59,506 nt of DNA from positions 1-59,506 of the forward strand of contig JBAYKD010000004.1 of assembly GCA_041664745.1 (NCBI GenBank), written 5' to 3'. This document shows positions 42,806-59,506 of this stretch, in pieces (within the stretch, counting starts at the first letter, position 1; each line of letters starts with the position of its first letter). This DNA is from Minisyncoccota bacterium. GTDB taxonomy: Bacteria > Patescibacteriota > Minisyncoccia > Phycocordibacterales > UBA9973. A program made the translations under genes and the position numbers. The notes beneath the pieces were generated by a model that saw only the letters and a program-made list of their open reading frames with translations, was not told where the DNA came from and did no database searches.

Positions 42806-43690
42806 ATGACTGATTATAAAAATTATCTCCCAAGTAAAAAATTTCAGGCAATTGTTTTAATTATCGTTGTATTTATTGCATTATTTTTCACAGTAAAAGG
42901 AATTGTTTCTTTAATTAAAAGCAAAAAATTAACGAGTAAGGAGCCTGCGAAAATAACAGTTGGTGAAGTGATACAAAAAGACAGCAATAGCAATGGTATT
43001 CCTGACTGGGAAGAATATCTATGGGGGCTTGATCCAAACAAAGATGGAGTAGCAAATAAAGAATTCATCATTTCAAAGAAAAATACCTTGGCTCAAAGTG
43101 GGGAAATGACACCAACCGATGATTCTAAAACAATCGCAGAAAACGATATACTTTCTAGGCAATTCTTTGCCACCATCATGTCCTTACAGCAAACGGGTGA
43201 GTTGAGCACAGATTCAATGCAATCTATATCTGACGCTGTTGGACAAAAAATAGAAGCAACACCAATAGCTAATATATACAGTAAAAGTATGCTTAAAATA
43301 GTAGCCGATTCTGCTACTGCCAATGAAAATTATCATGCAGCTTTTAGTTCTCTTGTAACACAATACGAAAATGCCGATATTGGTGGCGAATTAACCCTTA
43401 TTTCTCAAGGTATAGGGAATAATGACCCCCAAGCTCTAGCAGCTGCACAATCCGTCGCTTCTGCTTATAGATCATTCGCCAGCGACCTAATTAAGATACC
43501 GGTTCCAGATTCTGCTTTTAATGCTCATTTAAACCTAGCTAATGATTACGAAAAGACTGCTCAATCAATAGAAGGCCTCACAAAAACACTCACAGATCCA
43601 ATAATAGGGATGAAGGCAATTCTAAATTATAAACAATATAGTGACGCAATTGTTTCTGACCTAAATAGGCTCGCAACAGTTTTACAATAA
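42806..43690 (+). CDS. membrane-anchored hypothetical protein, first gene of the T4SS-like co-directional block
   Basis: N-terminal TM FQAIVLIIVVFIALFFTV. A DSNSNGIPDWEEYLWGLDPNKDG acidic Ca-binding-like motif. Confidence 0.5.
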   Translation: MTDYKNYLPSKKFQAIVLIIVVFIALFFTVKGIVSLIKSKKLTSKEPAKITVGEVIQKDSNSNGIPDWEEYLWGLDPNKDGVANKEFIISKKNTLAQSGEMTPTDDSKTIAENDILSRQFFATIMSLQQTGELSTDSMQSISDAVGQKIEATPIANIYSKSMLKIVADSATANENYHAAFSSLVTQYENADIGGELTLISQGIGNNDPQALAAAQSVASAYRSFASDLIKIPVPDSAFNAHLNLANDYEKTAQSIEGLTKTLTDPIIGMKAILNYKQYSDAIVSDLNRLATVLQ

Positions 43691-43723
43691 ACACTAAAAA
43701 GTGGTATACTAAATATAATTATT

Positions 43724-46700
43724 ATGAAAAAAAGAATTGCGATAAAAATAATTGGAGGTGCGATTATATTTAGTTTTGCAATGTTTTTTCTGGGCAGTTT
43801 TTTGCCGTTAAAAGCTTCCGCTGCTACTACTAATAAAGGACTCAATTGGGAAAATCCAAATAAAAATGGTAATAACCCATATAAATTTAAACCTGCGGAT
43901 GTTTTGAATTCACAGCTTATCATGCAAGTTGTAGGATGTACTGGCGTAGTAGATAAAGTTTCAGCGGCTGTGGTAGGTTTCGTCCAAGGCAAAGCAGGGA
44001 AGGTAGCAGCAGCAGCGTTAAAACAAAAAACAATGGACCAAATAACTGCAGCTGCTGTTAAGGCCTGCCAGTCTGGGAAAAAAATTACGATGGGAGGTGT
44101 AGCAGGAATACCAAATTTATCATTAACAGACGTGGTAAATTTAACCGACTGTAAACCAATACAAAAAACAGCCGACGGGCAAACTGTTGCAGCAATCGTA
44201 GCTCTTAAACAAGATGAAGCTGCTGCAAAAACTCGAGATGAGTGTTTCAATGGTATAGCTATAACCCTAGCTAGAAATCAGCTCACTGCTATGACTCGAT
44301 ATACTATGAATTGGGTAAATTCTGGATTTAGTGGCAACCCTATGTATGTGCAAGATATAACCAGACTTACCAATAAAATAAGTCAGGATGCTCTTAATGC
44401 TGGTGTACTAGAATTAACTAAAACTGATAAAGCTTATCCATATGGAGCTAGCTTTTCAACAGCTATCATAAATAATTATAAATCGGAAGGAGCCTTAAAA
44501 AATGGTGCAAATAACTTCCTTGCAAATATGACTTCCACCTTGAACAATTTCGTCACCGATCCTCAATCTTATAAATTCACATCAACTATTAAAGACAAAA
44601 GAACGGCCGCACAAAAAGCAAAAGATTTGAATAAAAGTTTCGCAAATGATTTCTCTTTAGGAGGATGGAGTGGTTACCTTGGACTTACTATGAATGAAGC
44701 GAATAATCCGCTTGGATTTTCTATGGCTGTTAGTCAATATCTAACAGATCAAGCAGAGGAAAAAAAGGCAGCAACTAAGAATGAGGTAGCTCAAAATAAT
44801 GGTTTCTTGAGTCAAAAGAAATGTTCTCTTTATAATGATTTAGACAAGGAATTATTGATTTCAAAATTATCATGGTTACAATCTGAAGCTACAAATGCGT
44901 GCAAGGATGCAGTTGAGGTTGCAGATTGTTTGGATGCAAAAGATTTAGTAAAACAAAAACAATATGAAATTAGTAATTTTCAAAGAACTTGTGTTACTTG
45001 GGATGTGGTGACCCCAGGAAGTCTCATAAAAGACAAGGTGAGTACTTATGTGAATTCGCCAGAGCGTCAACTTGAACTTGCTGATACTATAAATAAATCG
45101 CTCAACTCTTTGTTTACTGCCTTAATCACAAAATTCCAAGATCAAGGACTTTCAGGTCTTTCTTCTGAAAAATATCAATATACGAGTACTAGTATGGGTG
45201 GCGGACCAGGGTCTGATAGTATAGATTTGTTCAGTGATGCAACTGGAGGAAGTGGATATACAAATGGTTCTTTCGATCTAACTCATGATTTGGGGAATAG
45301 ATTTATCCATGGTTACAAGATAGACTCTGTTGGAAATTGGAATGCAAAAATTAATGAGCCACAATTATCTATTGGGGTTGCACCACTTATGGATGATGGC
45401 AAGACTCCATGGGAACCAAATGTATTTTATACTGTAAAAAATGGCGTAGATAGTAATGGTAAGGGTATCGTTGGTCAAACTAAGCTTTTTGAAAATGGAT
45501 ACAATAACTGGGAAAATGGCGATAGAGCATTTTGGGATGGAACAGAGTGGCAAAATTGGAAAAAAACTACGGTTGATAAAAATGGAATAATGTTAAACAC
45601 AAGTCCTATCGCAAAAAGAGGTGTTATTCAAATACAAAAAGATTATGTAGTTGCCGCTAAACAAATACTTGCATCTCTCCCAATAATCATGCCTCAAATA
45701 GGAGAACTTGATTACTGTCTACCGGGACCAAATCCAAATTTTCAAGGAATTTCCGCAGATACAAGCGCTTTGTTTTCTGACTTTAGTGGTTCAGTAACTG
45801 CTGAATTTAAAAAAGGTAGCCTTTTCAAAAGAAAGAGTAATACCTATAGCATAGCAACTTTTGGCGATCCACAATTCGATGATTATTACAATGTATTTAA
45901 ACTTACCGACTATACTTGGTGGCAAAAAGTTACTCAAACTGATTATTGGAATAGACTTCAAGCATATGGAAACGCTGGTACAGTAAAAGGAAGTCAGAAG
46001 AATCTCGATAACTTCCAACAAGGCATAGACGATCTTCTAGAAAAAATAAATACTGATACAAAAATATTCTATGATGTATATGCTCAATATATAGACAAAG
46101 CTTATGGGCCTAATAGTCTAATGCAAACTCAATTCTTCAAAAGAGAAGATACTCCTGACTTAATACCAAATCCGGCATGGCTCCCTATGGCATCTGAAGG
46201 GCTTGATATAACTAAAGACATAGTCGCATACAACGATGACATTATCACCACAGCAAATGATTATAAAGATTCTATTATTAAAGCTGATGCAAATGTGAGT
46301 AAGCTTAGTGAAATTAAAAATAAGGTTAGTGCAATAATAATAGCTGCTCAAAAACGCCGTAATGATAAATTAATTGCGACCTTAAAACAAGAAGCTATTG
46401 ATAGTAAAGGGCCTATTCTTACTGAGGCACAATACAAAGAAAAATATAAGAATTGTTTAGCAGAAGAGCAGATAGTTTATTATGATGATCTCTCAATCAT
46501 GGGAACTCCTAATGATGAGAAAAATAGATGTAGTGACGGTTTAGATAATGACCTCGATGGATTAGTTGATGATTTGGACCCTGATTGTAATGGAAATAAA
46601 GTTATACCTCCTCCTAATTATACTTGTGTCACCGATTTGACTGATTATCCTGCAACTGAAGATGATCCTGGAGGAATATTCATACAAAATGAAGTTGATC

Positions 46701-46810
46701 TTAATTTAATGCCAGAAGATACTCCTCCTTGTACTACGAGAACTGCTTCCACGTGTACATCGAGTCTTTACTTTAGTGGTGGAATGGGAATGAAGTGTAG
46801 ATTACCTTAA
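43724..46810 (+). CDS. large secreted protein (1028 aa) with a C-terminal Cys-bracketed DxDxDG motif
   Basis: Signal peptide ending LKASA. CSDGLDNDLDGLVDDLDPDC lies near the C-terminus. Confidence 0.55.
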   Translation: MKKRIAIKIIGGAIIFSFAMFFLGSFLPLKASAATTNKGLNWENPNKNGNNPYKFKPADVLNSQLIMQVVGCTGVVDKVSAAVVGFVQGKAGKVAAAALKQKTMDQITAAAVKACQSGKKITMGGVAGIPNLSLTDVVNLTDCKPIQKTADGQTVAAIVALKQDEAAAKTRDECFNGIAITLARNQLTAMTRYTMNWVNSGFSGNPMYVQDITRLTNKISQDALNAGVLELTKTDKAYPYGASFSTAIINNYKSEGALKNGANNFLANMTSTLNNFVTDPQSYKFTSTIKDKRTAAQKAKDLNKSFANDFSLGGWSGYLGLTMNEANNPLGFSMAVSQYLTDQAEEKKAATKNEVAQNNGFLSQKKCSLYNDLDKELLISKLSWLQSEATNACKDAVEVADCLDAKDLVKQKQYEISNFQRTCVTWDVVTPGSLIKDKVSTYVNSPERQLELADTINKSLNSLFTALITKFQDQGLSGLSSEKYQYTSTSMGGGPGSDSIDLFSDATGGSGYTNGSFDLTHDLGNRFIHGYKIDSVGNWNAKINEPQLSIGVAPLMDDGKTPWEPNVFYTVKNGVDSNGKGIVGQTKLFENGYNNWENGDRAFWDGTEWQNWKKTTVDKNGIMLNTSPIAKRGVIQIQKDYVVAAKQILASLPIIMPQIGELDYCLPGPNPNFQGISADTSALFSDFSGSVTAEFKKGSLFKRKSNTYSIATFGDPQFDDYYNVFKLTDYTWWQKVTQTDYWNRLQAYGNAGTVKGSQKNLDNFQQGIDDLLEKINTDTKIFYDVYAQYIDKAYGPNSLMQTQFFKREDTPDLIPNPAWLPMASEGLDITKDIVAYNDDIITTANDYKDSIIKADANVSKLSEIKNKVSAIIIAAQKRRNDKLIATLKQEAIDSKGPILTEAQYKEKYKNCLAEEQIVYYDDLSIMGTPNDEKNRCSDGLDNDLDGLVDDLDPDCNGNKVIPPPNYTCVTDLTDYPATEDDPGGIFIQNEVDLNLMPEDTPPCTTRTASTCTSSLYFSGGMGMKCRLP

Positions 46811-46851: not shown

Positions 46852-49800
46852 ATGGAAAATAACCCCAAAAAAAGCAAGGCATTCATAATAGCATTTATAT
46901 TGATTCTACTACTTTTGTTAGGAGGTTATTATCTATTTGCAAACAGAGCAACAATCTTTGACACTAAAGGAGTGGTGACCATGCAAAAAGTTTTCGCCCC
47001 ACTTCTAGGAACTTCCAAGAATAAAGATTTGAGTGTCATTGGTGGAACAGATACAACTTCTACTACGGGTAAAACAATTACAGGCGTAATAAACACAGAT
47101 CAAAATGGCAACAAGGTTATCCAAGTGGAAGCAGGTGAAAACTTAAAAAAGGGTGATGTACTTTATATAGCATCATTTAATAAAAACAATGCTCCAATAG
47201 TAATGAAGGCAATAGCAAATGATAAGAATAAATCTTTGGTCTTTGGAGTAGCAGGGGAAGATATAAACAAGGGTGCTACGGGCCACATAATAATAGAAGG
47301 AATTTTGAGTGGTATCCCCACAAATAGAACCGAGGTAACCGCTTGGACGCCCAAAAATCCACTTTATTTGAGTGATAAAATATATGGGGGAATGACAAAA
47401 AATCCTCCTCTAGCTCCATCCTTTGTAATTCCAGTAGGAAGTGTTATCAGTATTGACGCTATTAATGGATCGATCCGCGTAGGGGGAATACTAAATGACA
47501 CAAACATACCAGAAGATAATAAAACTAATTTAAATAAACTAAATGGGAACTTCTTGAACAGTTCTAATGGTAGTATTCGTGATTACTATGATTCAGTTTT
47601 TGGAATTAATACTAATAACAAAGTTACAGTTACAGACAATAATAATGGATTTATACTTAACCCTATTACTGTTCCTGGGTCTAGTGGTTTTTCAAGTAAT
47701 TTACCAACAGTAACAGCAGTTGCTTCGCCAGCATCTGTAGTTAGAGGAGGGTCTTCGGTTATAAGTTGGATATCTACAAAGGCAACAGTTTGTAATGCTG
47801 GAACAGGCAATGGAACAGGTGCAACTGGATCATTCAAAACAGGAACCCTTACAAAAAGTAAATCATTTACGATTTCTTGTACTGGAGCAAATGGATCCAA
47901 AAGTAGTGGAAATACTTTCGTCGCAGTTGTTGCTCCAGGAACTTGTATAAACAAAGCAACAAACTATCCAGCTTGTGACAACATTACGACTTGTTTAAAT
48001 GGAGCAACGAACCCTCCGGCCTGTACTACTAATCCTAAGGTGTGTACAAACGGGGCAACGAATCCTCCAACTTGTACTATTGTTAATGTTTGTATAAACG
48101 GGGCAACGAATTACCCAGTTTGTGATAATATTACAACTTGTTTGAATGGAGCAACTGATTACCCTACATGTGGAAATAATCCTAAAATATGTACAAATGG
48201 TAGTAAAAACCCTCCAGAATGTGCTGGTCCTAAAGTATGTACAAACAAGGCAACTAACTACCCAGCTTGTGATGATTCTAATAAATGTTTTAATGGGGCA
48301 TCAGACTATCCTACTTGTAAAATTGGAATAAAAATTTGTATGAATGGAGCAACGAATCCTCCAACTTGTACTAATCCAAATGTATGTATAAACGGTGGAA
48401 CCAATTATCCAGTTTGCACTCCTCCTGTTGGCCAATGTTTCAATGGAGCAACGAACCCTCCGGCTTGTGATAGTCCTATAAAAATTTGTATGAACGGGGC
48501 AACGAATCCTCCTGCCTGTGATAACCCTGATAAAACATGTACAAATGGATCTACAAATTATCCTGCCTGTGATAATATTGCAACCCTTTTCCCTTCCGTA
48601 AAAGTTACAGCAAAACCAACATCTATTAAAGAGGGTGGCACGACTGTTATTAGTTGGACTTCTACTAAGGCAATCTCGTGTGATGCAGGTGCGGGCAATG
48701 GAAAGGGCACAACTGGATCATTCAAAACAGGAGTTCTTACAACAAATACTTCTTATAGTGTAGTTTGTATTGACGCGAAAGGATCTAAGGGAAGTGGAAA
48801 TGTTTATGTTACAGTTAGTCCTATTGTTATAAATAAACCAGAGTGCAGTGATAAAATAGATAACAACAACGACAAATTAATAGATGAAAAAGATCCTAAT
48901 TGTCATGTGGGTGGTCTGCTTACTGGTAAATATCTTCCAACACATTATTCTGAAACTAACCCACCGTTTTCTGCAAACCCTCAGTGTTCAGATGATATAG
49001 ACAATAATAATAATGGGCTTATAGACTTCCAAGACCCTAATTGTCACATCGGCGGAGTACTCACTGGTAAATATGAACCAAAACATTATTCAGAAGATAT
49101 TCCACCATATGACACCAGTAATACTTGGCCAAGTATAAAATTAAAAGCTACTCCTATTTCTATCAAGGCAGGAGAAACTTCGACTATTAGCTGGACATCA
49201 ATGAATACTACATCTTGTTACGCAGGTATTGGTGCAAGTACTAACCCTAATGGATCATTCATAACAGAAGCTTTATCAGAAAGTAGATCATATACTGTAA
49301 CTTGTAAGGGTGATAAAGGTGAAGTAAGTAGTGATGCTTTTGTAAACGTCTTAGATGTTTATAAATTCCCAGTTGTAACTGTAACCGCCACCCCAACATC
49401 AGTTGATTCAGGAAAAACTTCAAAAATTAGTTGGACTTCTACAAACGCAACTAGTTGTAACGCAGGTATAGGTAGAGGAACAGGAACGACTGGATCTTTT
49501 GACACAGGACCTCTTGTTAAAGCTACTTCTTATACTATTACTTGTATCGGACCAAATGGACAAAAAGGGGGTAATACTAGTGTCAGTATTAATGGTGGTG
49601 GAGGTGATGGAAGTGGAAAACCACAGTGTAATGATGGAATTGATAATAATGGCAACAGATTAATAGATATGAATGAACCTAATTGTCACCTAGGTGCAGA
49701 TTTAAACAAAGAATATATACCTCTTCACGACTCTGAAGATACTCCTCCAACAGAATGTAGTGATGGGATAGATAATGATGGGGATGGTTTTATAGATAAA

Positions 49801-50640
49801 GATGACCCAAACTGTCATCTAACTGGTGATTTGAATAAAGAATATATCCCTACACATAACTCTGAAAGTGTTTCGCCAACACAGTGTAGTGATGGTAAAG
49901 ATAATGATGGGGATGGGAAAATAGACGCAGAAGATCCTAATTGTCACACAGATGGAGACATAACTAAAGAGTATGTATCTACTTGGAACTCAGAAGTAGA
50001 TTCTCCTAAATCACCCTATGAAAATACTTGTAAGGTTATAGATAGTAACCCATTAGAATTTACTGATGTAGAGAAGGCTCAACTTGATGAACTCCTTCGT
50101 AAGTTCTACCTTATTGCCCCAAACCTTCGAACAGAAGATGATATAAATATTGCTTATAGTGAAATTACTCAGTATCAAAATTTCTCTGACCACTTAAAGA
50201 CACTAATAAATCAATGTTATAAACAAACTGCTGATCCAGCTTATATAACAGCTAGTGGAGCTACTACAAGATATGGAAACCCTTGGTATAAATATAGTAC
50301 CTTGAGAGGTTCTTATATAGATAAAAACTTTGATTGTAAATACGTATCAGGCTGGTTCTCTGGAAATGGAGCAGATGGAAAAAATTGTGATACTTATAAT
50401 ACACAAATATATGCCTTGAAGCCTGCATCATGTAATGGTTCTCTAAGACTATACAACGTCACCAGTAATGACTCTACTTGGCAAAGCCATTCTAGCCTTT
50501 ATTATGCAAATATAGCGGCTAGACAGGGAAACATTCAGGCACAACAAGACATAATATATGCCAATGGGTTAAAGAATAAATGTGTATGGAATCCAGGAGC
50601 AAAAATTGCCGATTTGGAGAAGATTTTCAATGTTTGGTAA
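46852..50640 (+). CDS. giant secreted repeat protein (1262 aa)
   Basis: N-terminal TM/signal anchor, 13 CxNGATN(P/Y)PxC repeats, 4 Ig-like modules with a conserved ISW..T.A.SC pattern, 5 CxDGxDNxxDxxIDxxDPNCH units, and a Cys-containing C-terminal domain. Confidence 0.6.
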   Translation: MENNPKKSKAFIIAFILILLLLLGGYYLFANRATIFDTKGVVTMQKVFAPLLGTSKNKDLSVIGGTDTTSTTGKTITGVINTDQNGNKVIQVEAGENLKKGDVLYIASFNKNNAPIVMKAIANDKNKSLVFGVAGEDINKGATGHIIIEGILSGIPTNRTEVTAWTPKNPLYLSDKIYGGMTKNPPLAPSFVIPVGSVISIDAINGSIRVGGILNDTNIPEDNKTNLNKLNGNFLNSSNGSIRDYYDSVFGINTNNKVTVTDNNNGFILNPITVPGSSGFSSNLPTVTAVASPASVVRGGSSVISWISTKATVCNAGTGNGTGATGSFKTGTLTKSKSFTISCTGANGSKSSGNTFVAVVAPGTCINKATNYPACDNITTCLNGATNPPACTTNPKVCTNGATNPPTCTIVNVCINGATNYPVCDNITTCLNGATDYPTCGNNPKICTNGSKNPPECAGPKVCTNKATNYPACDDSNKCFNGASDYPTCKIGIKICMNGATNPPTCTNPNVCINGGTNYPVCTPPVGQCFNGATNPPACDSPIKICMNGATNPPACDNPDKTCTNGSTNYPACDNIATLFPSVKVTAKPTSIKEGGTTVISWTSTKAISCDAGAGNGKGTTGSFKTGVLTTNTSYSVVCIDAKGSKGSGNVYVTVSPIVINKPECSDKIDNNNDKLIDEKDPNCHVGGLLTGKYLPTHYSETNPPFSANPQCSDDIDNNNNGLIDFQDPNCHIGGVLTGKYEPKHYSEDIPPYDTSNTWPSIKLKATPISIKAGETSTISWTSMNTTSCYAGIGASTNPNGSFITEALSESRSYTVTCKGDKGEVSSDAFVNVLDVYKFPVVTVTATPTSVDSGKTSKISWTSTNATSCNAGIGRGTGTTGSFDTGPLVKATSYTITCIGPNGQKGGNTSVSINGGGGDGSGKPQCNDGIDNNGNRLIDMNEPNCHLGADLNKEYIPLHDSEDTPPTECSDGIDNDGDGFIDKDDPNCHLTGDLNKEYIPTHNSESVSPTQCSDGKDNDGDGKIDAEDPNCHTDGDITKEYVSTWNSEVDSPKSPYENTCKVIDSNPLEFTDVEKAQLDELLRKFYLIAPNLRTEDDINIAYSEITQYQNFSDHLKTLINQCYKQTADPAYITASGATTRYGNPWYKYSTLRGSYIDKNFDCKYVSGWFSGNGADGKNCDTYNTQIYALKPASCNGSLRLYNVTSNDSTWQSHSSLYYANIAARQGNIQAQQDIIYANGLKNKCVWNPGAKIADLEKIFNVW
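47944..48570 (+). repeat. coding tandem array of 13 Cys-bracketed ~15-16-aa repeats
   Basis: C365-C573 of the 1262-aa protein, e.g. CLNGATNPPAC, CTNGATNPPTC, CINGATNYPVC, CMNGATNPPAC. Confidence 0.85.
48844..49992 (+). repeat. five coding copies of a Cys-bracketed DxDxDG-like unit, interleaved with two Ig-like modules
   Basis: CSDKIDNNNDKLIDEKDPNCH, CSDDIDNNNNGLIDFQDPNCH, CNDGIDNNGNRLIDMNEPNCH, CSDGIDNDGDGFIDKDDPNCH, CSDGKDNDGDGKIDAEDPNCH. Each is followed by a ..K(E)Y.P.H.SE tail. Confidence 0.8.
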
Positions 50641-50727: not shown

Positions 50728-53667
50728 ATGAAAAAGATTTTATCTTATATTTTAATAACATTAATACTTTCCGCGAACTTCCTCGCGCCTATTAGTGTTG
50801 GGTTTAGTGGAAAAAATATAGAGATTAAAAGGAATATAACAGAAGCATATGATGCAAAACTTGCTGCAACTTTTACTAATACAGACACTGTAATAGCAGG
50901 AACAATAAAAGTTAATGAAGGTGCTGAAACATACAATGCTAGTGTTGGTGGTTCTGTTCTTCTTATACTCCAACTATCTCTTACAGAAGACTCATCAGGT
51001 GATATTTTGGGTTTTGATGGTAAAAAAACTGCATATCCAAAGGAAGTAGTAGTCACATGGAAAGACATGCAGGGTGATGGACAAAAATTTGAATATAACG
51101 GATTAAATCCTTTGGGGGAATATACTTTCAGTGCTGTAGTGGTAGAGAAAACAACAACCAGTACAGAATCTTATTCTGATTCAGTAGAAAAAGACATAGC
51201 TGGTATGCCACCACTATCTATCGCTTTAAATAAAAAAGGTGATCAAACTGTGGTTGACGCAGGAAAAACAGAAGTTGAAGTTGCATCTCCTAAAAATGCT
51301 CTACCTGGTTGTGGTGTAACTGGGAATAATACAATAATGGGTTGTGTAGTTCAAGGATTTTATTATATTTTATTTGTGCCAACTTCATACTTATTTGCTC
51401 TTGCTGGTACAGCGTTTGATTATACTTTTGCATATTCTGTTCAAGATACATCTTATAAATCAGCTTTTGTAGTACAAGGATGGGGGCTCATTCGTGACCT
51501 TTGTAATATGTTTTTTATCTTCATAATGCTTTATGTTGCAATAGGGACAACACTAAGTTTACACAGTATGAAAACCAAGGAGACTATTGTGAATGTTGTC
51601 ATCATAGGACTCTTTATAAATTTTAGTCTTTTTGCCACTCAACTTATCATAGATGCTTCAAATATTACAGCGAGGGTATTTTATAATTCAAATGCGATCA
51701 CAATTACAGAAAAAGATGCAAATGGGGTCACAAATGCAACGCCAGGGCTTAAGGTTGGAGAGGGTGGAATTATTCCTCTTTCTGCTGCTTTGGTAAATAA
51801 AGTTAATCCTCAAAATTTAATTTTTAGTGCCGATAAAATTAATTCTATTCAAAATAATACTGGATCAACTATATCTGAAGATACTAGTTCTAAGGGCTTA
51901 GGAATTGGACAATTTATTTTAATCATTATTATGGCTTCGGCTGTAAATATTGTGGGGTTTACAGTATTCTTAACCATCGCCCTTCTATTTATTGCTCGTG
52001 TTATAGGACTTTGGCTCGCTATGATTCTCTCTCCTCTTGCATTCTTTACTTATATACTACCGGAAATGGCTGGAACTAAAATGATAGGGTGGAAAAATTG
52101 GTGGCCGGATACTCTCAAAATGGCGTTTCTCGCTCCTGTATTCATATTCTTTATGTATATTATTCTCAAATTCCTTCAAGCGGATTTGATATCAGACATA
52201 GCTAGTAAATCACTCTCTGGTGATGGATTAGGTTACTTTGTTGCTATTCTTGTTCCTTTTGCTTTTATTATGATCCTCATGATAAAAGCAAAAAAAATAG
52301 CAGTAGATATGTCAGGAGAATTTGGAGAAATGGCTACAAAGGCAGGCTCAGCTTTAGGTGGTATGGCTCTAGGTGGCGCTGTTGGTGCTGGAGCATTTGC
52401 AATGCGAGGGACGATTGGTGCACTAGGAGATAAAGTAGCTAATAATGATTGGCTTAAAACACATGGAGGACGATTGGGTAATCTGGCCAGGGATGCTGGT
52501 AAATGGACGGCTAGTAAGTCATTTGATGCTAGAAACACAAAACTTGGAGGTGATGCAATGAAGGGTATGGGAGTAGATGCAGGCAAAGCAAAAGAAGGTG
52601 GATATGCTAAACACAAAGCAGAAATTACAGAAAAGAGGCGAGAAAGAGCAGAGTCAAAGAAGCTTGGGAACAACACACCTGAAGTACAACAATTACATAA
52701 ATCTGAAGAAGATTTAGCTAACCTAAAAAATACAGCTAAAAACGATACAGATAGAATTGATGGAACACTCGCAGCAAAGAGACTTGTGGCAAGTGATGCA
52801 AGCCAGAAATTAACATCAGCAAATGCAAAACTTGCAAGAGCTGAAAAAGATGCAGAAAACTTAGACAAGGATCCAAATGCAACACAAACACAAAAAGACG
52901 CAGCAAAAGCTGAAATAGCAAAAGCACAAATAGAAGCAAAGGCAGCACAAGATTACTTTGATACCAATGCTAAAACAATAGCAGATCTAACTCAAGAAAG
53001 AATAGAACTAAATAGTGGAACTGGTAGACATTGGGATAAAACCTCAGACGGTAAGGTGCACGAAATAACATATAATAAATTCAAAGAAGATGCAGAGAAT
53101 AAAAAAGCGTCAGTTGAATCAATGGAAACCAACCTTGATACTGATATTCAAGCTGCAAAAGATAAGGTTACAAATGATATTGCTCAATCTGAGGCTGAAT
53201 TAAATAAACTCAAACAAGCATTGGCAGACGAGACGGCCATAGCAAACCCTGCATCACCTCAAGACATGGCTCTTCTACAAAAAACCAAAGATGAAGTAGC
53301 AAAAGCAGAAGCTTCATTTAATACATTAAATAATTCTAAGGATGCAGCAATGACTGCTGCTGAAAGTGAAGTAAAGGCTGCGTTAGAAAAAGCAAAAACA
53401 GAAAATGTAGCAGCACAAAAAACATTTGGAGATATAGAGAAAGCAAGAGCAGCAAAAGGCTTCTCTGATTCAAACCCAGACAAACAAAGATCTCTTGATG
53501 GTTTAAGTCTAAAGATTATTCCACACGAACACCATCATGTAGAAGAAATAAATGCTGGAAGAGTAAATAAATATGCTGAAACAATAAGAGGTAGATGGTT
53601 TAACAAAGAAGCAAATGACGTAGCTGCTCATGAAGCTATAATGAGATCTGAGATTAAGAAGCATTAA
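50728..53667 (+). CDS. VirB6/TrbL-like polytopic membrane protein with an N-terminal ectodomain and a long Ala/Lys/Glu-rich C-terminal tail
   Basis: Signal peptide, a ~200-aa soluble region, at least six hydrophobic helices between about aa 210 and 560, then a ~400-aa low-complexity coiled-coil-like tail. It sits just upstream of the VirB3/VirB4 homologs. Confidence 0.55.
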   Translation: MKKILSYILITLILSANFLAPISVGFSGKNIEIKRNITEAYDAKLAATFTNTDTVIAGTIKVNEGAETYNASVGGSVLLILQLSLTEDSSGDILGFDGKKTAYPKEVVVTWKDMQGDGQKFEYNGLNPLGEYTFSAVVVEKTTTSTESYSDSVEKDIAGMPPLSIALNKKGDQTVVDAGKTEVEVASPKNALPGCGVTGNNTIMGCVVQGFYYILFVPTSYLFALAGTAFDYTFAYSVQDTSYKSAFVVQGWGLIRDLCNMFFIFIMLYVAIGTTLSLHSMKTKETIVNVVIIGLFINFSLFATQLIIDASNITARVFYNSNAITITEKDANGVTNATPGLKVGEGGIIPLSAALVNKVNPQNLIFSADKINSIQNNTGSTISEDTSSKGLGIGQFILIIIMASAVNIVGFTVFLTIALLFIARVIGLWLAMILSPLAFFTYILPEMAGTKMIGWKNWWPDTLKMAFLAPVFIFFMYIILKFLQADLISDIASKSLSGDGLGYFVAILVPFAFIMILMIKAKKIAVDMSGEFGEMATKAGSALGGMALGGAVGAGAFAMRGTIGALGDKVANNDWLKTHGGRLGNLARDAGKWTASKSFDARNTKLGGDAMKGMGVDAGKAKEGGYAKHKAEITEKRRERAESKKLGNNTPEVQQLHKSEEDLANLKNTAKNDTDRIDGTLAAKRLVASDASQKLTSANAKLARAEKDAENLDKDPNATQTQKDAAKAEIAKAQIEAKAAQDYFDTNAKTIADLTQERIELNSGTGRHWDKTSDGKVHEITYNKFKEDAENKKASVESMETNLDTDIQAAKDKVTNDIAQSEAELNKLKQALADETAIANPASPQDMALLQKTKDEVAKAEASFNTLNNSKDAAMTAAESEVKAALEKAKTENVAAQKTFGDIEKARAAKGFSDSNPDKQRSLDGLSLKIIPHEHHHVEEINAGRVNKYAETIRGRWFNKEANDVAAHEAIMRSEIKKH

Positions 53668-53675: not shown

Positions 53676-54083
53676 ATGACAGAAAAATTAGCACAAACAA
53701 TAAAAGAAGATCTTGTAAAACTACCACTTGAGGCACAAAAGGCTATTACTTCTTCTGGGTGGGAAGAGATTACTGAAATGATTGGCAGAAAATACTCACT
53801 ATTAGATGATGATGTAAACATAATACAACTTGAAGTTGGATTAGTGCTTCTGGGATATAATAAAATAAGTATGTTCGCACAAAATATTCGATCAAGTGCT
53901 GTTTTAGACGAAGAAACTGCTATGAATATATCAAAAGAATTAGACGAAAGGGTATTTACACCAATAGAACAAAGTATGCAGTCTTTGATTAAGATAAATC
54001 CACATTATAAAAATGTAAATTGGGATCAGACAATTAATTTCATCGTTTCAGGTGGGGATTATTCAGTTTTCTTAGATAAATAG
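53676..54083 (+). CDS. hypothetical protein carrying one copy of a ~95-aa domain shared with the next gene
   Basis: LPLEAQKAITSSGWEEITEMIGRKYSL...LEVGLVLLG parallels LTKESRAAIDAVSWKLIISGMNKKFNP...METELLLCG. Confidence 0.45.
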   Translation: MTEKLAQTIKEDLVKLPLEAQKAITSSGWEEITEMIGRKYSLLDDDVNIIQLEVGLVLLGYNKISMFAQNIRSSAVLDEETAMNISKELDERVFTPIEQSMQSLIKINPHYKNVNWDQTINFIVSGGDYSVFLDK

Positions 54084-54088: not shown

Positions 54089-55258
54089 ATGGACAAAACA
54101 ACAGACTCATTACAAATAGAAATAGACAAGGCGAGAGAGGGGCTCACCAAGGAAAGTCGTGCGGCTATTGATGCTGTCAGTTGGAAGTTAATAATTTCTG
54201 GAATGAATAAAAAGTTTAATCCTGAACAATTAGATTTTTTAGAAATGGAAACAGAATTACTTCTTTGTGGACTTGAAAGCACAACAAATTATACTAAGGA
54301 GTTGGAAAGTGGAATGAAAATATCTAGGGCAGATGTTGGTGTCCTAATAAACGAACTCGATAAACTAATTTTCAAAAAAATTCAAGAAGAATTGGAAAAT
54401 AGACTTAATGGGGGAAAGGGGAAAATAGTCTATAAAAATAAGCCTTTTGTTGTTGATCCACGTTTTATAAACCTACCTAAAGAGCTTCAAGAGGCTATTT
54501 CTTACTCAAACTGGAAAGAAAGAATGTATGATATAGCTAAAAAATTTAAACTTAATATTGAACAAACAGGACTCTTGGAAGAAATTACCATTAAGGTAAT
54601 ACTAAACACAATACACACAGATCAATATGAGGGTGAGATACGATCTAAAATAGATTTGGGGGATGACAAAATAAAAGAAATGGTTACAGATTTGAATGAA
54701 AATATTTTCAAAAATATCAAACAGATTATGGAAAATGCTTCTGCGTCTCTAAGTGAAGAGAAGAAAATTCCTGCTCCTCCTTATGTATCAAAAAAGGAAG
54801 TCGCCTCATCGGCGACCCGCCGAGAAGGCGGGATAAATGATGTTGTACCATTACCCCCAGTATCTTCGCCCCCTGCTAAGGGGGAGATGCCTAAAGGGCA
54901 GAGGGGGTCTGATTCAACTGACGTTTATAAAGAAGAAAAACCTGCTCAAAAAGAAATAGAAGACATTATTTCAAATAAAGGGGTAGGGAACAAAGAATCT
55001 GATATGTATAGAGAGCATGGAATAGAGATTATTTCTGAAGATGAAGTAATTCCAGAAATAAAAAAAGTAGAAAATAAAATGCCTTCTCCTTCTATGGGTA
55101 ATATTGTTGTAGAAAATACAAAAAAAGTAGATTCCAATATCATTGCGGATAAATTATTTGGAAACACAACAAGTAAAACAACTGTTAGCGACTACTCTCT
55201 ACCTAAAATTAGTAATGATCAAGAACATACTCATGATCCATATCATGAAGCAATTTAA
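54089..55258 (+). CDS. hypothetical protein with two copies of the same domain plus a Pro-rich, GC-rich insert
   Basis: The second copy is LPKELQEAISYSNWKERMYDIAKKFKL...EEITIKVILN. The GC-rich patch at 54800-54905 encodes VASSATRREGGINDVVPLPPVSSPPAKGE. Confidence 0.45.
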   Translation: MDKTTDSLQIEIDKAREGLTKESRAAIDAVSWKLIISGMNKKFNPEQLDFLEMETELLLCGLESTTNYTKELESGMKISRADVGVLINELDKLIFKKIQEELENRLNGGKGKIVYKNKPFVVDPRFINLPKELQEAISYSNWKERMYDIAKKFKLNIEQTGLLEEITIKVILNTIHTDQYEGEIRSKIDLGDDKIKEMVTDLNENIFKNIKQIMENASASLSEEKKIPAPPYVSKKEVASSATRREGGINDVVPLPPVSSPPAKGEMPKGQRGSDSTDVYKEEKPAQKEIEDIISNKGVGNKESDMYREHGIEIISEDEVIPEIKKVENKMPSPSMGNIVVENTKKVDSNIIADKLFGNTTSKTTVSDYSLPKISNDQEHTHDPYHEAI

Positions 55259-55271: not shown

Positions 55272-55685
55272 ATGAGATTCCAAGTCCCACAATTTATAGA
55301 CATAGAAGATAAAATTTTTGGCCCTTTTACTTTTCGCCAATTTGCCTTTTTGATAGGTGGAGGGGGGATAGTCTTTGTTTTATACAAACTTCTTCCATTT
55401 GTTATAGCTATAATACCTATTTTATTAATGGGAGGGCTTACTATCTGTCTTGTTTTTGTTAAAATAAACAACAAACCATTCGCTTACTACTTACAGGCTG
55501 CATTTAGTTATCTATTTTCTAGTAAATTATATATATGGAAACAAAGATTGGTTAAAAAAAGCGATAAACAAGAAGAGGAGGTGGCAGTTCCAACAACGAT
55601 ATCAAGCGTGCCAATGCTTTCTGATAGTAAATTGAAGGATTTATCTTGGAGTTTGGATGTGCAAGATAAACAGGATAATCAATAA
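55272..55685 (+). CDS. PrgI family / VirB3-like small membrane protein
   Basis: MRFQVPQFIDIEDKIFGPFTFRQFAFLIGGGGIVFVLY, followed by a second TM helix. It lies immediately upstream of the VirB4 genes. Confidence 0.6.
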   Translation: MRFQVPQFIDIEDKIFGPFTFRQFAFLIGGGGIVFVLYKLLPFVIAIIPILLMGGLTICLVFVKINNKPFAYYLQAAFSYLFSSKLYIWKQRLVKKSDKQEEEVAVPTTISSVPMLSDSKLKDLSWSLDVQDKQDNQ

Positions 55686-55715: not shown

Positions 55716-56369
55716 ATGGCAATTGATGCAAAAGCAGCACAAGAATTCGTTCCAATTAAAGAGGTTCGTAATGGAATCATAATTCTTAAAGATGGTGGTC
55801 TTCGTGCTATCCTTATCGCTTCTTCCATCAACCTTTCTCTCAAATCATCCGATGAGCAAATGGCAATAATAAATCAATTCCAATCATTCTTAAATGGTCT
55901 TGATTTCCCAACACAAATAGTTATTCAATCAAGAAGACTAGATATAAGACCATACCTTCTAATGCTTGAAGCGAGATTGAAGGACCAAACAGAACCCCTT
56001 TTAAAAATACAAACAAAAGAATATATAACTTTCATTAAATCTTTCACAGACGAAGTAAACATCATGACAAAAACTTTCTTTGTAGTCGTACCTTATAGTT
56101 CAACAATTATTAAATCACAAAATGGAATGATAGATAGCTTCCTAGGCGGTGGGGCGCCTAAAAAACAAATAGAGGATACTAAAAAAGCCATGGATTTAGC
56201 CTCTTTTGAGGAAAAGCGTAGCCAGCTTGAACAAAGAACAAATGTGATCATAAGTGGCTTAAGTGGTATAGGGATAAGAAGTAGTCAGCTTAAAACTGAC
56301 GAGGTAGTAGAACTTTTCTATAAAACTTTCAATCCAGGTGATATTAGTCAGGGAATTAAATTACAATAA
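55716..56369 (+). CDS. VirB4 N-terminal-domain-like protein
   Basis: VPIKEVRNGIIILKDGGLRAILIASSINLSLKSSDEQMAIINQFQSFLNGLDFPTQIVIQS resembles the extreme N-terminus of VirB4/TrbE/TraE ATPases. Its stop TAA is separated by 1 nt from the next ATG. Confidence 0.5.
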   Translation: MAIDAKAAQEFVPIKEVRNGIIILKDGGLRAILIASSINLSLKSSDEQMAIINQFQSFLNGLDFPTQIVIQSRRLDIRPYLLMLEARLKDQTEPLLKIQTKEYITFIKSFTDEVNIMTKTFFVVVPYSSTIIKSQNGMIDSFLGGGAPKKQIEDTKKAMDLASFEEKRSQLEQRTNVIISGLSGIGIRSSQLKTDEVVELFYKTFNPGDISQGIKLQ

Positions 56370-56370: not shown

Positions 56371-58209
56371 ATGGGAATATTTTCATCAATGTTTAATAAT
56401 GGTAAAGGGGCAGCAGCAACACAAAAAAGTGCCGTGATGCCTGTTCTGCCTACTGAAATATACAAAGCGGCTACATTAGAACTCCAAGACGTCATCGCTC
56501 CTTCCGCTTTACAAATAACACCTAGAAGTTTAAATTTGGGGGATAAAATAGCTAGAACCTTCTTCGTCATCTCTTATCCTAGATATCTTACAGATAATTG
56601 GTTCTCTCCAATAATTAACTTGGATAAAATTTTTGATGTATCTATATTTATACATCCAATAGAAACAGCTGAGATATTAAGATCTTTCCAAAAGAAAGTT
56701 GCCGAGGTTCAAAGTCAGATTTCTGTGCGGGAATCAAAGGGATTAGTGCGCGACCCAATGCTAGATACTGCTTATCAAGACTTAGAAGGACTCCGTGACA
56801 ACCTAATGCAAGCCCAAGAAAAGATGTTTGATGTTGGGCTTTATATCACTGTATACGCTGACAATGAAAATGATTTATTTAAAATAGAAAGTGAAGTTAA
56901 ATCACTCCTAGATGCCAAGCTTGTTTATTTGAAGCCGGCTCTTTTCCAACAAGACGAAGCCTTCAAAAGTGTCATACCACTTGGAACAGATATATTAGGA
57001 ATACACCAAAAATTAAACACTGCCCCACTTTCAAGTATGTTTCCGTTTGTTTCATTCGACCTTACTTCCGACAAAGGAATTCTATATGGCGTAAACAGAC
57101 ACAACTCTAGTCTTATTATTTTTGATAGATTCTCTCTTCCAAACTATAACTCTATCACCTTCGCTACGGCTGGAGCAGGTAAATCTTACGCAACGAAACT
57201 TGAAATCATTAGAACCTTAATGTTTGATGCAGAAGTAATAGTTATCGACCCTGAAAGGGAATACGAATACCTTGCAGAAGCAATCGGTGGTAGATATTTT
57301 AATATTTCTTTATCTTCTGATCACCATATTAATCCTTTTGATTTACCAATACCAAGACCAGATGAGACAGCTGCGGATGTCCTCCGAGCAAATACGATTA
57401 ATCTTGTTGGTTTGTTCCGAATAATGCTTGGTGGACTTACGCCAGAAGAAGATTCAATAATAGACCGAGCAATAACTGAAACATATGCTTTGAAAGATAT
57501 TACCGCTGAATCAAACTTCGCAAACATAGAACCTCCTCTTCTCTCAGACTTTGAAATTGTTCTAGCAGGAATGGATGGGAGTGGTTCCCTTATTCAACGT
57601 ATTGCTAAATATACACATGGATCTTGGTCTTCATTTATAAACAGACCATCTAACGTGGATATTAATCGTAAATTCGTAGTTTTCTCTGTTCGAGACATGG
57701 AGGATGAACTTAAGCCGGTAGCGATGTATATAGTCACCCACTTTATCTGGAATGCTGTCCGTAAAAACCTAAAGAAGCGCTTATTGGTTGTGGATGAGGC
57801 TTGGTGGATGATGAAGTCGGAAGATACCGCTTCTTTCCTTTATTCTATCGCCAAAAGAGGACGTAAATACTACCTAGGACTTGCTACAATCACTCAAGAT
57901 GTGGGGGACTTCATGAAGAGCCCTTATGGTGTGCCTATTGTGACAAACTCTTCAATTCAACTTCTTCTAAAACAATCCCCAGCTACAGTAGACGTCCTAC
58001 AGAAAACATTCAACCTTACTGATGAAGAGAAATATTTACTCCTTGAGGCTAATGTTGGAGAGGGAATATTCTTCGCGGGGTTGAAACACGTAGCTATTAA
58101 AACAATAGCTTCATATACAGAGGATCAAATTATCACATCTGATCCATCACAAATTCTTGCAATAAAAAAGGCAAAAGACGAGTTAGAAAGTTCAAATAGT
58201 GGTCAATAA
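56371..58209 (+). CDS. virB4: VirB4-family type IV secretion ATPase
   Basis: IAPSALQITPRSLNLGDKIARTFFVISYPRYL N-domain motif, Walker A ATAGAGKSYA, Walker B LLVVDEAWWMM, ATITQD sensor region. ATG 56371 is preferred over GTG 56338. Confidence 0.85.
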   Translation: MGIFSSMFNNGKGAAATQKSAVMPVLPTEIYKAATLELQDVIAPSALQITPRSLNLGDKIARTFFVISYPRYLTDNWFSPIINLDKIFDVSIFIHPIETAEILRSFQKKVAEVQSQISVRESKGLVRDPMLDTAYQDLEGLRDNLMQAQEKMFDVGLYITVYADNENDLFKIESEVKSLLDAKLVYLKPALFQQDEAFKSVIPLGTDILGIHQKLNTAPLSSMFPFVSFDLTSDKGILYGVNRHNSSLIIFDRFSLPNYNSITFATAGAGKSYATKLEIIRTLMFDAEVIVIDPEREYEYLAEAIGGRYFNISLSSDHHINPFDLPIPRPDETAADVLRANTINLVGLFRIMLGGLTPEEDSIIDRAITETYALKDITAESNFANIEPPLLSDFEIVLAGMDGSGSLIQRIAKYTHGSWSSFINRPSNVDINRKFVVFSVRDMEDELKPVAMYIVTHFIWNAVRKNLKKRLLVVDEAWWMMKSEDTASFLYSIAKRGRKYYLGLATITQDVGDFMKSPYGVPIVTNSSIQLLLKQSPATVDVLQKTFNLTDEEKYLLLEANVGEGIFFAGLKHVAIKTIASYTEDQIITSDPSQILAIKKAKDELESSNSGQ

Positions 58210-58210
58210 A

Positions 58211-59203
58211 ATGAAAAAGTTTTTATATTTTATTTTAATAGTTTGTATATTAAACATATTATCCATGCCGTCTTTTTCCATCGCTGAAAATCTACAAATA
58301 GATGTACAAGAAGGGGAAATTAGTGTAGAAACAATTCCTAATAATCCACAACCATACGGTGATGTAACTATTAATCTTACTAGTTATGCTACTGATTTAA
58401 ATAAAGCCATAATAGTATGGACGGGGGATAAAGGAGTTATACTCTCGGGTATAGGAGAAACAAGTTATTCTTTTAAGGCCGGAGGCCCAAACACCTCCAA
58501 CGCCTTTAATATTAAAATTACTCCCGTAGGATCAATGAATACTATCAGTAAGAAAATTGTTATTAATCCTTCTGAGATTGATGTTGTATGGGAGTCTGTT
58601 GATGGATATACTCCACCTTTTTATAAAGGCAAAGCTCTCCCCACAAGTGGTAGTACTATTCGGGTTGTCGCAATACCAAATACAAACACCATAAAAACAG
58701 GAGTGGGAAGTATGGCTTATATATGGAGCAATACAAGTGAAACAAAACTTGATGCTTCTGGTTATAATAAGAACTCATATACTTTCAAAAATAGTATGTT
58801 TGATGACACAAATGAAGTGAAAGTAATTGCTTCATCTGTAAATGGAAACTATGGAGCAGAGAGTACCATTAAAATACCAGTCTACCCACCAAAAGTACTT
58901 TTCTATAAGAAATCACCAACAGAGGGTGTGCTTTATAATAAAAATTTAGATAATAATTATGTTTTTTCTGAAGAAGAAATGACAATTGTAGCTGTGCCAT
59001 ACTTCTTAGCAACCAAAGGGGTTGAATTTAATTTTAATTATAATTGGGATGTAAACGGAGAGCCCATAAAAACACCTAAAAAGAAAACAGAACTAACAAT
59101 CAGACCTGCTTCTCGTGGGGGATATGCTGATATAAGTATAACAATTGAAAGTGTAAGTGATTTATTCCAAAAAGTTATTGGCCAATTAAAATTAACTCTA
59201 TAA
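58211..59203 (+). CDS. secreted hypothetical protein with repeated beta-rich modules
   Basis: Signal peptide MKKFLYFILIVCILNILSMPSFSIA. ATG 58211 follows the virB4 stop directly. Confidence 0.5.
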   Translation: MKKFLYFILIVCILNILSMPSFSIAENLQIDVQEGEISVETIPNNPQPYGDVTINLTSYATDLNKAIIVWTGDKGVILSGIGETSYSFKAGGPNTSNAFNIKITPVGSMNTISKKIVINPSEIDVVWESVDGYTPPFYKGKALPTSGSTIRVVAIPNTNTIKTGVGSMAYIWSNTSETKLDASGYNKNSYTFKNSMFDDTNEVKVIASSVNGNYGAESTIKIPVYPPKVLFYKKSPTEGVLYNKNLDNNYVFSEEEMTIVAVPYFLATKGVEFNFNYNWDVNGEPIKTPKKKTELTIRPASRGGYADISITIESVSDLFQKVIGQLKLTL

Positions 59204-59204
59204 T

Positions 59205-59506
59205 ATGAAAAAATTATTTTCTTCTATCTTAATATCATTTATCTTATTACTAAACATTGGTCTTCCAGTTTCTGTTTTAGCAGCGGTACCAACAATAAAA
59301 TTAAGTTTGGTTAATGAACAACAAAATGGAGAGACTGGACAATGGTCTTGGGTTTTTGATATTAAAACAACAAATATTCCAAATGGTGAAGTTGTGACTT
59401 TGGGTTTATCTAAAAATGGAGTAAAGGAGGGGGTTTTAGTAAAAGAAAAAATAACGAACAATAGTGGATCTTTTTATACTGATTCAACCGACACAAATGG
59501 AAAACC
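59205..59506 (+). CDS. secreted hypothetical protein, 3'-truncated by the window edge
   Basis: ATG at 59205, one nt after the upstream stop. MKKLFSSILISFILLLNIGLPVSVLAAVPT signal peptide. The frame is open to the end of the window. This ORF is not in the ORF track. Confidence 0.5.
   Translation, partial: MKKLFSSILISFILLLNIGLPVSVLAAVPTIKLSLVNEQQNGETGQWSWVFDIKTTNIPNGEVVTLGLSKNGVKEGVLVKEKITNNSGSFYTDSTDTNGK

Follow-up and report, generated by a model that had tools for sequence, protein, structure and literature searches.

A chromosomal gene cluster derived from a type IV secretion system, with conserved accessory genes, in a Patescibacteria contig

The genes of a cluster derived from a type IV secretion system (T4SS) were examined in a 59.5 kb stretch of DNA from a Minisyncoccota bacterium (contig JBAYKD010000004.1). 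The whole stretch is referred to as the window, position 1 being its first letter. The cluster runs from position 42806 to the right edge of the window, which lies inside its last gene, and its genes are named as in Table 1. The analysis confirmed that the T4SS-derived cluster, first described in an earlier note on this DNA, is real. It is probably a chromosomal, origin-proximal T4SS of Patescibacteria that arose from conjugation machinery of the MPF-FATA type, has lost the DNA-processing half of that machinery and serves macromolecule transfer between an epibiont and its host. Membership of the Patescibacteria clade of T4SSs is very likely, and a role in macromolecule transfer at the host interface, as opposed to conjugation, is favoured with more reserve. 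The system is already known: it was published in 2023–2025, a close relative has the same gene order, and the cluster is no new kind of system.

Results

The T4SS core

The VirB4 ATPase was assigned an ATG start at 56371 in place of an overlapping GTG, giving 612 residues, equal to the length of VirB4 in the relative L001. The protein matched the NCBIfam CD1110-family VirB4 model at model positions 182–734 (E 3e-110, 369.5 bits against a cut-off of 325) and Pfam P-loop_TraG (E 6e-24). The Walker A (AGAGKS) and Walker B (VVDEAWWMM) motifs were located at 57169–57186 and 57787–57813, respectively. The gene that ends 1 nt before virB4 encodes a 217-residue protein which matched NCBIfam TrsD/TraD NF041427 (E 2.4e-7, 30.8 bits; a domain-level match, the subfamily cut-off being 200) and aligned to residues 104–233 of VirB4_plasma (E 2.5e-10) and 2–118 of the CD1110 VirB4 model. 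As judged from these alignments, the predicted TrsD-like protein is the N-terminal domain that is absent from VirB4, a split of the pGO1 type. The 137-residue PrgI/VirB3-like protein passed the Pfam PrgI model PF12666 (E 7.8e-9, 36.4 bits against a gathering score of 27) and contained two transmembrane (TM) segments by hydropathy. The VirB4 ATPase with both Walker motifs, the protein resembling the VirB4 N-terminal domain and the two-TM PrgI/VirB3-like protein, all named in the earlier note, were thus borne out by profile searches.

The 979-residue product of g979 was examined by hydropathy and an AlphaFold2 (AF2) model, which gave a signal or anchor segment, an ectodomain at approximately residues 44–182, at least six TM helices between approximately residues 200 and 520, and a long charged coiled-coil tail. 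The model had a predicted local distance difference test score (pLDDT) of 72, and the Foldseek matches were FN3 folds only, for the ectodomain, which is accordingly modelled as an FN3-like β-sandwich. The orthologue of g979 in Parcubacteria bacterium RAAC4_OD1_1 is ETB64080.1 (E 7e-135), which was labelled VirB6 by the CONJScan profile T_virB6 at 73% profile coverage (Table S3 of Quinonero-Coronel et al., 2025; PMC12102498). The protein is called VirB6-like here because its position, its topology and its orthology to this published T_virB6 match agree, and g979 was present in all 52 loci with enough upstream DNA. No VirB6/TrbL profile in Pfam or NCBIfam matched g979 or 12 of its homologues at loose thresholds, and the TM region gave no tblastn match in 72,556 plasmids. 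A 56-sequence profile of g979 aligned to PrgH of pCF10 with an hhalign probability of 0.1, and a profile search of the PDB sequences returned only low-complexity matches to the coiled-coil tail. Pfam PF19590, probably a TrbL/VirB6-like family, was flagged in precomputed annotation on a few g979 homologues, a flag that was not reproduced. The VirB6/TrbL-like polytopic protein proposed earlier therefore stands on helix number, position and orthology, and its family assignment was not recovered by Pfam or NCBIfam.

Conservation and chromosomal position

A VirB4 scan of one genome per species returned at least 597 relatives. The best 80 of these VirB4 proteins were 75–93% identical to that of the window and came from metagenome-assembled genomes (MAGs) of Paceibacteria, Nomurabacteria and Parcubacteria or Patescibacteria, some deposited under a generic Saccharibacteria label. 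On these sequence relationships the organism is identified as a member of the Paceibacteria, Nomurabacteria-like, in agreement with the earlier impression of a genome resembling the candidate phyla radiation (CPR) or Patescibacteria. TrsD was found in 80/80 loci, PrgI in 76/80 and g334, directly after virB4, in 77/80.

Gene order was compared in 24 loci that span rsmA to virB4. All 24 had the order rsmA, g294, g1028, an optional gene in the g1262 slot, g979, g389 with or without g135, PrgI, TrsD, VirB4 and g334, followed by a protein of 300–575 residues and then one of approximately 440 residues; rsmA was immediately upstream of the cluster in every related locus that reached it (24/24). Two more distant contigs, whose g1028 homologues are 35–36% identical, kept the same order over the part that was read and the same upstream block of DUF5663, uvrD and rsmA; one of them resembles the window also in having comM and an M23/LysM peptidase gene upstream of that block. 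The block formed by the minus-strand M23/LysM gene, followed by the large charged membrane protein and the DUF5663 protein (plus strand, 36656–39795), precedes uvrD-rsmA in L082 and L084 too, and the L084 counterpart of the 935-residue charged protein carries an FtsK_gamma domain.

In L001 (VirB4 93% identical), g334 is followed by the last two genes of the cluster, a pilin fusion gene and a gene for a 432-residue anchored protein. Downstream lie jag, yidC and rnpA on the other strand, followed by dnaA and dnaN (origin region L001:15945-20716). Because the order is kept in 24/24 loci and the cluster ends at jag-yidC-rnpA-dnaA-dnaN in L001, it is assigned to the core chromosome and not to an integrative and conjugative element (ICE). 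The check across related MAGs that the earlier note had proposed thus gave a chromosomal-core and not an island-like pattern. Identity to the proteins of the window was graded, at 75–93% for VirB4, 59–94% for TrsD, 45–77% for PrgI, 28–54% for g979, 30–60% for g334 and 23–41% for g1028, a pattern that fits a functional machine in which a conserved motor would be combined with faster-evolving surface parts.

These data bear directly on whether the cluster might be an ICE remnant, a conjugative element, decayed or cryptic and deprived of its relaxase and coupling protein, which is idle or moves only with help in trans. VirB4, TrsD and PrgI are of the monoderm conjugation (MPF-FATA) type, and the window contains a tyrosine recombinase gene. 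However, the recombinase is XerC/D-like and lies 15 kb away on the other strand among housekeeping genes, and many species have the cluster at this one place, between rsmA and the dnaA region. The reading frames of the cluster genes are all intact, and the GC content of the locus (0.355) matches that of the remaining window (0.344). VirB4 stays 75–93% identical across species while neighbouring genes fall to 25–50%, indicating strong purifying selection. An ICE remnant is regarded as highly improbable. The earlier preference for a chromosomal apparatus over a plasmid or ICE is instead upheld by the syntenic core position, the GC content and the lack of a relaxase or coupling protein downstream in relatives.

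The last gene and its orthologues

The last gene starts at the ATG at 59205, which leaves 100 residues inside the window. The predicted protein begins with a signal-peptide-like sequence, as judged by eye, and its N-terminal 100 residues were 41% identical (E 7e-7) to the start of the protein encoded at L002:12990-14465. In this closest homologue a T4SS_pilin hairpin (PF18895), scoring 28.3 bits where the gathering score is 26.6, precedes an SLT lytic transglycosylase domain (E 1.4e-15). Positional orthologues of the last gene were collected from 66 loci, including L002:12990-14465, L012:12908-14317, L020:12859-14229, L036:12932-14023 and 62 others, and T4SS_pilin was found in 54 of the 66. 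Their architecture consists of a signal peptide, a variable ectodomain, the T4SS_pilin hairpin and an interchangeable C-terminal peptidoglycan enzyme, which was NlpC/P60 in 14, VanY in 8, YkuD in 5, Peptidase_M15_4 in 3 and SLT-type in 5.

The earlier note had reported no VirB2-like pilin, and none is visible in the window. Since the last gene is cut at 100 residues and its orthologues carry T4SS_pilin, this absence is probably an effect of the window edge. The RAAC4 orthologue, ETB64086.1, is listed as VirB2 by Quinonero-Coronel et al. (PMC12102498), who count such proteins as VirB2 and do not mention the fusion of pilin and hydrolase; proteins of this architecture may not form a pilus at all. 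Judged by the domain order of the orthologues, a VirB1-like cell-wall function appears to have been fused to the pilin-like gene in the Paceibacteria lineage. The two further secreted proteins that had been noted downstream of virB4 were both recovered, g334 having an N-terminal anchor by hydropathy and the last protein its signal-peptide-like start.

Absence of conjugation genes

Pfam scans covered nearly all substantial open reading frames (ORFs) of at least 100 residues across the whole window. No relaxase, VirD4/TcpA-type coupling ATPase or VirB11 was found among the ORFs scanned, as had been reported from the sequence by eye, and P-loop proteins other than VirB4 were of housekeeping types only (ComM, UvrD and an ABC transporter ATPase). 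The earlier note had held that a relaxase and a coupling protein directly downstream would make the locus an ordinary conjugative element; neither was present in the 10 kb downstream in L001. The 935-residue protein upstream of the cluster was considered as a coupling ATPase and rejected: Pfam gave no match, no Walker motif could be seen by eye, and the protein is charged and contains a TM segment.

The missing export components could also be read as pointing to an import machine, a conduit that takes up host DNA, RNA or other cytoplasmic material in the manner of archaeal Ced or of ComB. A relaxase and a coupling protein, needed for DNA export, were found neither in the window nor downstream in L001. 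VirB4 also matched the DNA-import ATPase CedB (NF041017) with an E value of 1.4e-6, nucleotide synthesis is lacking in these organisms, and a 2026 preprint reports host RNA uptake together with possible T4SS pili (10.64898/2026.06.21.733656). However, the CedB match scored 27.3 bits against a cut-off of 700, which is generic ATPase similarity only, and no CedA-like or ComEC-like partner was recognised in the cluster. Deletion of comEC in Saccharibacteria is viable, so that the essential T4SS role there is not ComEC transformation (PMC12857230), and the preprint itself calls the uptake mechanism unresolved. Import is the main alternative, though considered unlikely, and export of effectors or proteins is taken as the default reading.

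Upstream exported proteins

The three genes ahead of g979 encode proteins of 294, 1028 and 1262 residues that had been described as exported, and hydropathy gave N-terminal signal or anchor segments for all three, as it did for the 334-residue protein. The g294 protein has a single N-terminal TM anchor at residues 16–34 and no Cys, and matched nothing in Pfam or NCBIfam. A homologue occupies the same position in 22/24 of the rsmA-to-virB4 loci and also in more distant contigs. The g1028 protein has a signal-like N-terminus, 16 Cys and one C-terminal acidic double-disulfide repeat (NF033662, residues approximately 933–960, E 1.4e-7). More than 200 full-length homologues were found, all annotated as hypothetical and none with Pfam domains, and the gene holds the same position in 24/24 loci and in the two more distant contigs. 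Its AF2 model was poor (pLDDT 57; predicted template-modelling score, pTM, 0.29) and returned nothing below E 3 in Foldseek; with low confidence, the model suggests a largely α-helical protein. A profile of the g1028 family searched against the PDB matched only the C-rich domain of teneurin-4 (7plp, E 0.005).

The g1262 protein contains 50 Cys, 11 matches to CxNGxxxxPxC, five acidic double-disulfide repeats (NF033662, E 2.6e-25, 87.8 bits against a cut-off of 41) and several repeated segments that look immunoglobulin (Ig)-type by eye. The repeat CxDGxDNDxDGxIDxxDPxC, present once in g1028 and five times in g1262, is shared with the teneurin C-rich domain; the likeness is confined to this short repeat, which is common to unrelated extracellular proteins, and calcium binding, by which the repeats would be the Ca motifs of the earlier note, is a reasonable reading. 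Proteins in the g1262 slot of relatives (L001–L078) range from 272 to 1180 residues and share with g1262 only the N-terminal (approximately 1–255) and C-terminal (approximately 1005–1260) parts, while the middle, with its Cys loops, Ig-like segments and acidic repeats, expands and contracts. The slot gene was not detected in many relatives and is unusually large in the window. On this comparison the giant size of the adhesin-like g1262 results from repeats that expanded in its own lineage, a feature typical of adhesins.

The earlier note had coupled the T4SS to giant Cys-rich proteins. It is possible, though doubtful, that the T4SS core is real and that g294, g1028 and g1262 are ordinary surface proteins which merely adjoin it without functional coupling. 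None of the three resembles any T4SS component, g1262 is highly variable in size and undetected in many relatives, and CPR genomes carry many large Cys-rich surface proteins. A gap of 87 nt separates g1262 from g979, and a promoter-like site occurs at 50478–50505, in promoter and terminator scans whose site numbers for the region were no higher than in shuffled sequence. Set against this, g294 (22/24) and g1028 (24/24) keep the same place and orientation upstream of the VirB6-like gene, even where g1028 is only 35–36% identical. The gaps are short (33–87 nt), and the same scan, with the same limit, gave no terminator-like site in the plus-strand intergenic gaps of the cluster. Operons of the pCF10 type likewise start with prgA, prgB and prgC before the channel genes. 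The earlier statement is thus right in part: g294 and g1028 are conserved cluster members, and g1262 is a size-variable, repeat-expanded gene.

The g135, g389 and g334 proteins

The g135 and g389 proteins are soluble, with no TM segment. A phmmer comparison related them (E 7.5e-12), two stretches of g389 being matched, so that a module of approximately 95 residues is present as one copy in g135 and as two tandem copies in g389, which also has a tail rich in Pro, Glu and Lys. Neither protein has an assigned family, g135 having given no match in Pfam or NCBIfam. Nearly all of the 24 loci, and more distant contigs as well, carry a g389 homologue between the VirB6-like and PrgI genes, and some relatives have only the two-copy gene of the g389 type, without g135. 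Kinship of g135 and g389 with the nearby DUF5663 protein was rejected (phmmer E approximately 0.5–0.9). For g334, assignment as a VirB8-like protein was tried and found no support in a PDB profile search or in hhalign against PrgL.

Organisation of the cluster and other features of the window

The ORF listing gave eleven ORFs, all on the plus strand, from 42806 to the end of the window (Table 1). With refined starts, which place that of g334 at the ATG at 58211, the intergenic gaps are 33, 41, 87, 8, 5, 13, 30, 1, 1 and 1 nt in gene order, and the gap between rsmA and g294 is 92 nt. The eleven co-directional genes with gaps of 1 to about 90 nt that had been read from the sequence are therefore in place (gaps 1–92 nt), whereas their extent needs correction, as the co-directional block already begins at 36656, four genes earlier, with the 935-residue charged membrane protein, the DUF5663 protein, uvrD/pcrA and rsmA. 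The plus strand shows positive GC and AT skew, probably reflecting a purine-rich coding strand rather than a replication strand. Were the origin placed as in L001, between rnpA and dnaA, the cluster of approximately 17 kb would be transcribed toward the origin, head-on to replication.

Table 1. Genes of the T4SS-derived cluster and neighbouring features discussed in the text.
Feature	Position	Strand	Remarks
M23/LysM peptidase	35218-36090	-	Pfam
Tyrosine recombinase, XerC/D-like	26498-27478	opposite to cluster	only recombinase in window; 15 kb away, among housekeeping genes
rsmA/ksgA, 16S rRNA dimethyladenosine methyltransferase	41880..42713	+	Pfam RrnaAD E 6e-55; conserved left border
g294	42806..43690	+	294 aa, first cluster gene
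g1028	43724..46810	+	1028 aa, second cluster gene
g1262	46852..50640	+	1262 aa, predicted membrane-anchored repeat-rich surface protein
g979, extended VirB6-like	50728..53667	+	979 aa, polytopic
g135	53676..54083	+	135 aa, soluble
g389	54089..55258	+	389 aa, soluble
PrgI/VirB3-like two-TM protein	55272..55685	+	137 aa; Pfam PrgI PF12666
TrsD-like, VirB4 N-terminal domain as own gene	55716..56369	+	217 aa
VirB4 ATPase without N-terminal domain	56371..58209	+	612 aa
g334, N-terminally anchored, β-rich	58211..59203	+	about 330 aa, directly 3' of virB4
Last gene	59205..59506	+	first 100 aa only; putative signal peptide and start of variable ectodomain; cut by window end

The rest of the window consists of housekeeping or unrelated genes. 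Pfam matches identified an APH-family kinase, two dCTP deaminase-like genes, an LD-carboxypeptidase, a Hint-domain protein, NusA, an H+-pyrophosphatase, an ABC transporter, trigger factor, ClpP, RNase Y, a ZIP transporter, PNPase, a DksA/TraR zinc-finger protein, ComM, the M23/LysM peptidase, UvrD and RsmA. Four tRNAs, a CCA-adding enzyme, an exonuclease III-like protein, the XerC/D-like recombinase and an NYN protein were also found. The dCTP deaminase-like paralogues (1648–2166 and 2147–2707, both on the minus strand; E 2e-32 and 4e-26) are adjacent and slightly overlapping, and sit in the part of the window with the lowest GC content (0.26–0.27). A 616-residue protein (6156–8006, minus strand) gave weak Hint- or intein-like matches, all below gathering scores (Vint at E 1.7e-5, Hom_end_hint and PT-HINT), and could be a Hint-containing secreted or toxin-like protein. 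The H+-translocating pyrophosphatase is encoded at 10713–12752 on the plus strand (E 2e-273). PNPase, encoded at 28631–30757 on the plus strand, is highlighted in the 2026 preprint on host-RNA feeding (10.64898/2026.06.21.733656). Quinonero-Coronel et al. (PMC12102498) mention a "VirB1 homologue with M23/LysM domains", for which the M23/LysM gene of the window is a candidate.

A hairpin of 39 nt at 42575–42613, with perfect 16-bp arms (GGAAGTCCGACTTCC...GGAAGTCGGACTTCC), lies within the 3' part of rsmA approximately 100 nt before the stop codon. It is terminator-like on the minus strand according to the scan, and codes for the small peptide repeat EVRLPNIKEVGLP.

Discussion

The cluster corresponds closely to published Patescibacteria systems. 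Quinonero-Coronel et al. (PMC12102498) described a monophyletic clade of Patescibacteria VirB4 proteins derived from MPF-FATA, in which virB4 has TrsD, VirB3/PrgI, VirB6 and VirB2-like genes nearby and relaxases are almost absent. In their Paceibacteria the neighbourhood contains KsgA, RnpA, RpmH, DnaA and DnaN, KsgA being a typical virB4 neighbour. The cluster of RAAC4_OD1_1 (coding sequences, CDS, 531–537) has the order VirB6, one gene, VirB3/PrgI, TrsD, VirB4, one gene and a VirB2-like gene, to which the window corresponds with g979 as the VirB6-like protein and, putatively, the truncated last gene as the VirB2-like one, and its VirB4 is 85% identical. The upstream KsgA, the downstream RnpA, DnaA and DnaN (in L001) and the lack of a relaxase or type IV coupling protein (T4CP) nearby likewise agree with the published arrangement. 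The window differs from it in nothing essential; g294, g1028, the g1262-slot gene, g389/g135, g334 and the gene for the 432-residue protein are not assigned in that survey. Seven further cluster proteins, predicted to lie in the envelope or cytoplasm and without a family, are kept in fixed order across species.

The T4SS cluster of Southlakia epibionticum, SEML1_0006-0019 in strain ML1, was found by transposon sequencing (Tn-seq) to be essential for epibiotic growth, has no recognisable coupling or relaxase protein, and was suggested to serve protein export or another role (Wang et al., 2023; PMC10633639). Like the cluster in the window it is a monoderm-type chromosomal T4SS of a CPR epibiont, with TrsD, PrgI and VirB4 homologues and with VirB6 and pilin-like genes, to which g979 and the last gene would correspond. 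It differs in that its VirB2-like pilins, small and divergent, form an array of six and that peptidase and lysozyme are encoded by genes of their own downstream of virB4, whereas the Paceibacteria cluster has a single pilin-like/hydrolase fusion gene, seen in relatives, and other accessory genes. A 2025 nomenclature review treats such systems as a new branch of the superfamily and records that comEC deletion in Saccharibacteria abolished competence but not viability (PMC12857230). The host-contact and transfer function proposed in the earlier note agrees with these three accounts; the idea itself is not new. For a cultivated member of the phylum, a 2026 preprint (10.64898/2026.06.21.733656) describes host RNA uptake, tubular interface structures "that may be T4SS pili" and phylum-wide monophyly of VirB4 and PNPase, and leaves the uptake mechanism open.

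Compared with the MPF-FATA conjugation systems, namely prg/pcf of pCF10 in Enterococcus and trs of pGO1 and pSK41 in Staphylococcus, the cluster shares the CD1110-family VirB4, PrgI and, as in pGO1, a separate TrsD gene ahead of the ATPase. The arrangement also resembles that of pCF10 in the polytopic protein upstream of PrgI, at the place of PrgH, and in the surface proteins heading the operon. Unlike pCF10, the cluster has no T4CP (PcfC), no relaxase (PcfG), no recognisable PrgL (VirB8-like) or PrgK-type hydrolase gene. No similarity was detectable between g979 and PrgH, and the PrgI protein was not similar to PrgI of pCF10 by BLASTP. The Paceibacteria locus further differs from these systems in belonging to the core chromosome and in having, as judged from relatives, a VirB2-like domain, which is absent from monoderm conjugation systems.

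On the model of monoderm T4SSs, PrgI would hold the TrsD/VirB4 ATPase to the membrane next to the VirB6-like channel, and the VirB3/VirB4/VirB6 core would form an ATP-driven translocon in a single membrane. The pilin-like/peptidoglycan-hydrolase fusion and g334 may open and span the wall. By analogy with PrgA, PrgB and PrgC, which head the pCF10 operon, g294, g1028 and g1262 would form the surface or host-contact part. Such a machine would move macromolecules between the epibiont and the host cell instead of conjugating DNA.

Several observations weigh against this interpretation. Neither Pfam and NCBIfam nor hhalign against PrgH, the PDB profile search or Foldseek recovered the VirB6 label of g979, and no VirB8-like or VirB1-like gene is recognisable in the window. 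The roles of g294, g1028, g1262, g135/g389 and g334 are drawn from conserved position and predicted location only, their folds being unassigned. The related RAAC4 genome has T4CP-like genes (CDS 83, 85 and 469) far from virB4, so that the genome of the window could likewise encode a distant coupling protein. Finally, essentiality has been demonstrated in Saccharibacteria alone, a different class from Paceibacteria.

A more specific proposal, offered tentatively, joins the accessory genes into one scheme covering g294, g1028, the g1262-slot gene, g135/g389, g334, the pilin-hairpin/peptidoglycan-hydrolase fusion and the 432-residue anchored protein. These seven conserved genes, left unassigned in the published surveys, may be integral, lineage-specific parts of the machine, with g1262 as a fast-evolving host-recognition adhesin and g135/g389 as a cytoplasmic substrate adaptor replacing the coupling protein. 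The protein counted as VirB2 would be no pilus subunit but a membrane hairpin that brings to the channel one of several exchangeable enzymes for cutting the wall (NlpC/P60, VanY/M15, YkuD or SLT), and the whole might act as a conduit for exchange with the host, possibly of host RNA.

The Patescibacteria account for much of bacterial diversity, and their cells live attached to hosts, from which they draw resources. The window provides a clean Paceibacteria example of which unannotated genes travel with the T4SS core, which gene varies, and how a pilin-like gene is fused to interchangeable wall enzymes. The interest that remains in a system already described lies in the conserved accessory genes, the size-variable adhesin-like gene and the pilin-hydrolase fusion seen in relatives, all of which are targets for structural and genetic work as soon as a Paceibacteria co-culture is open to manipulation.

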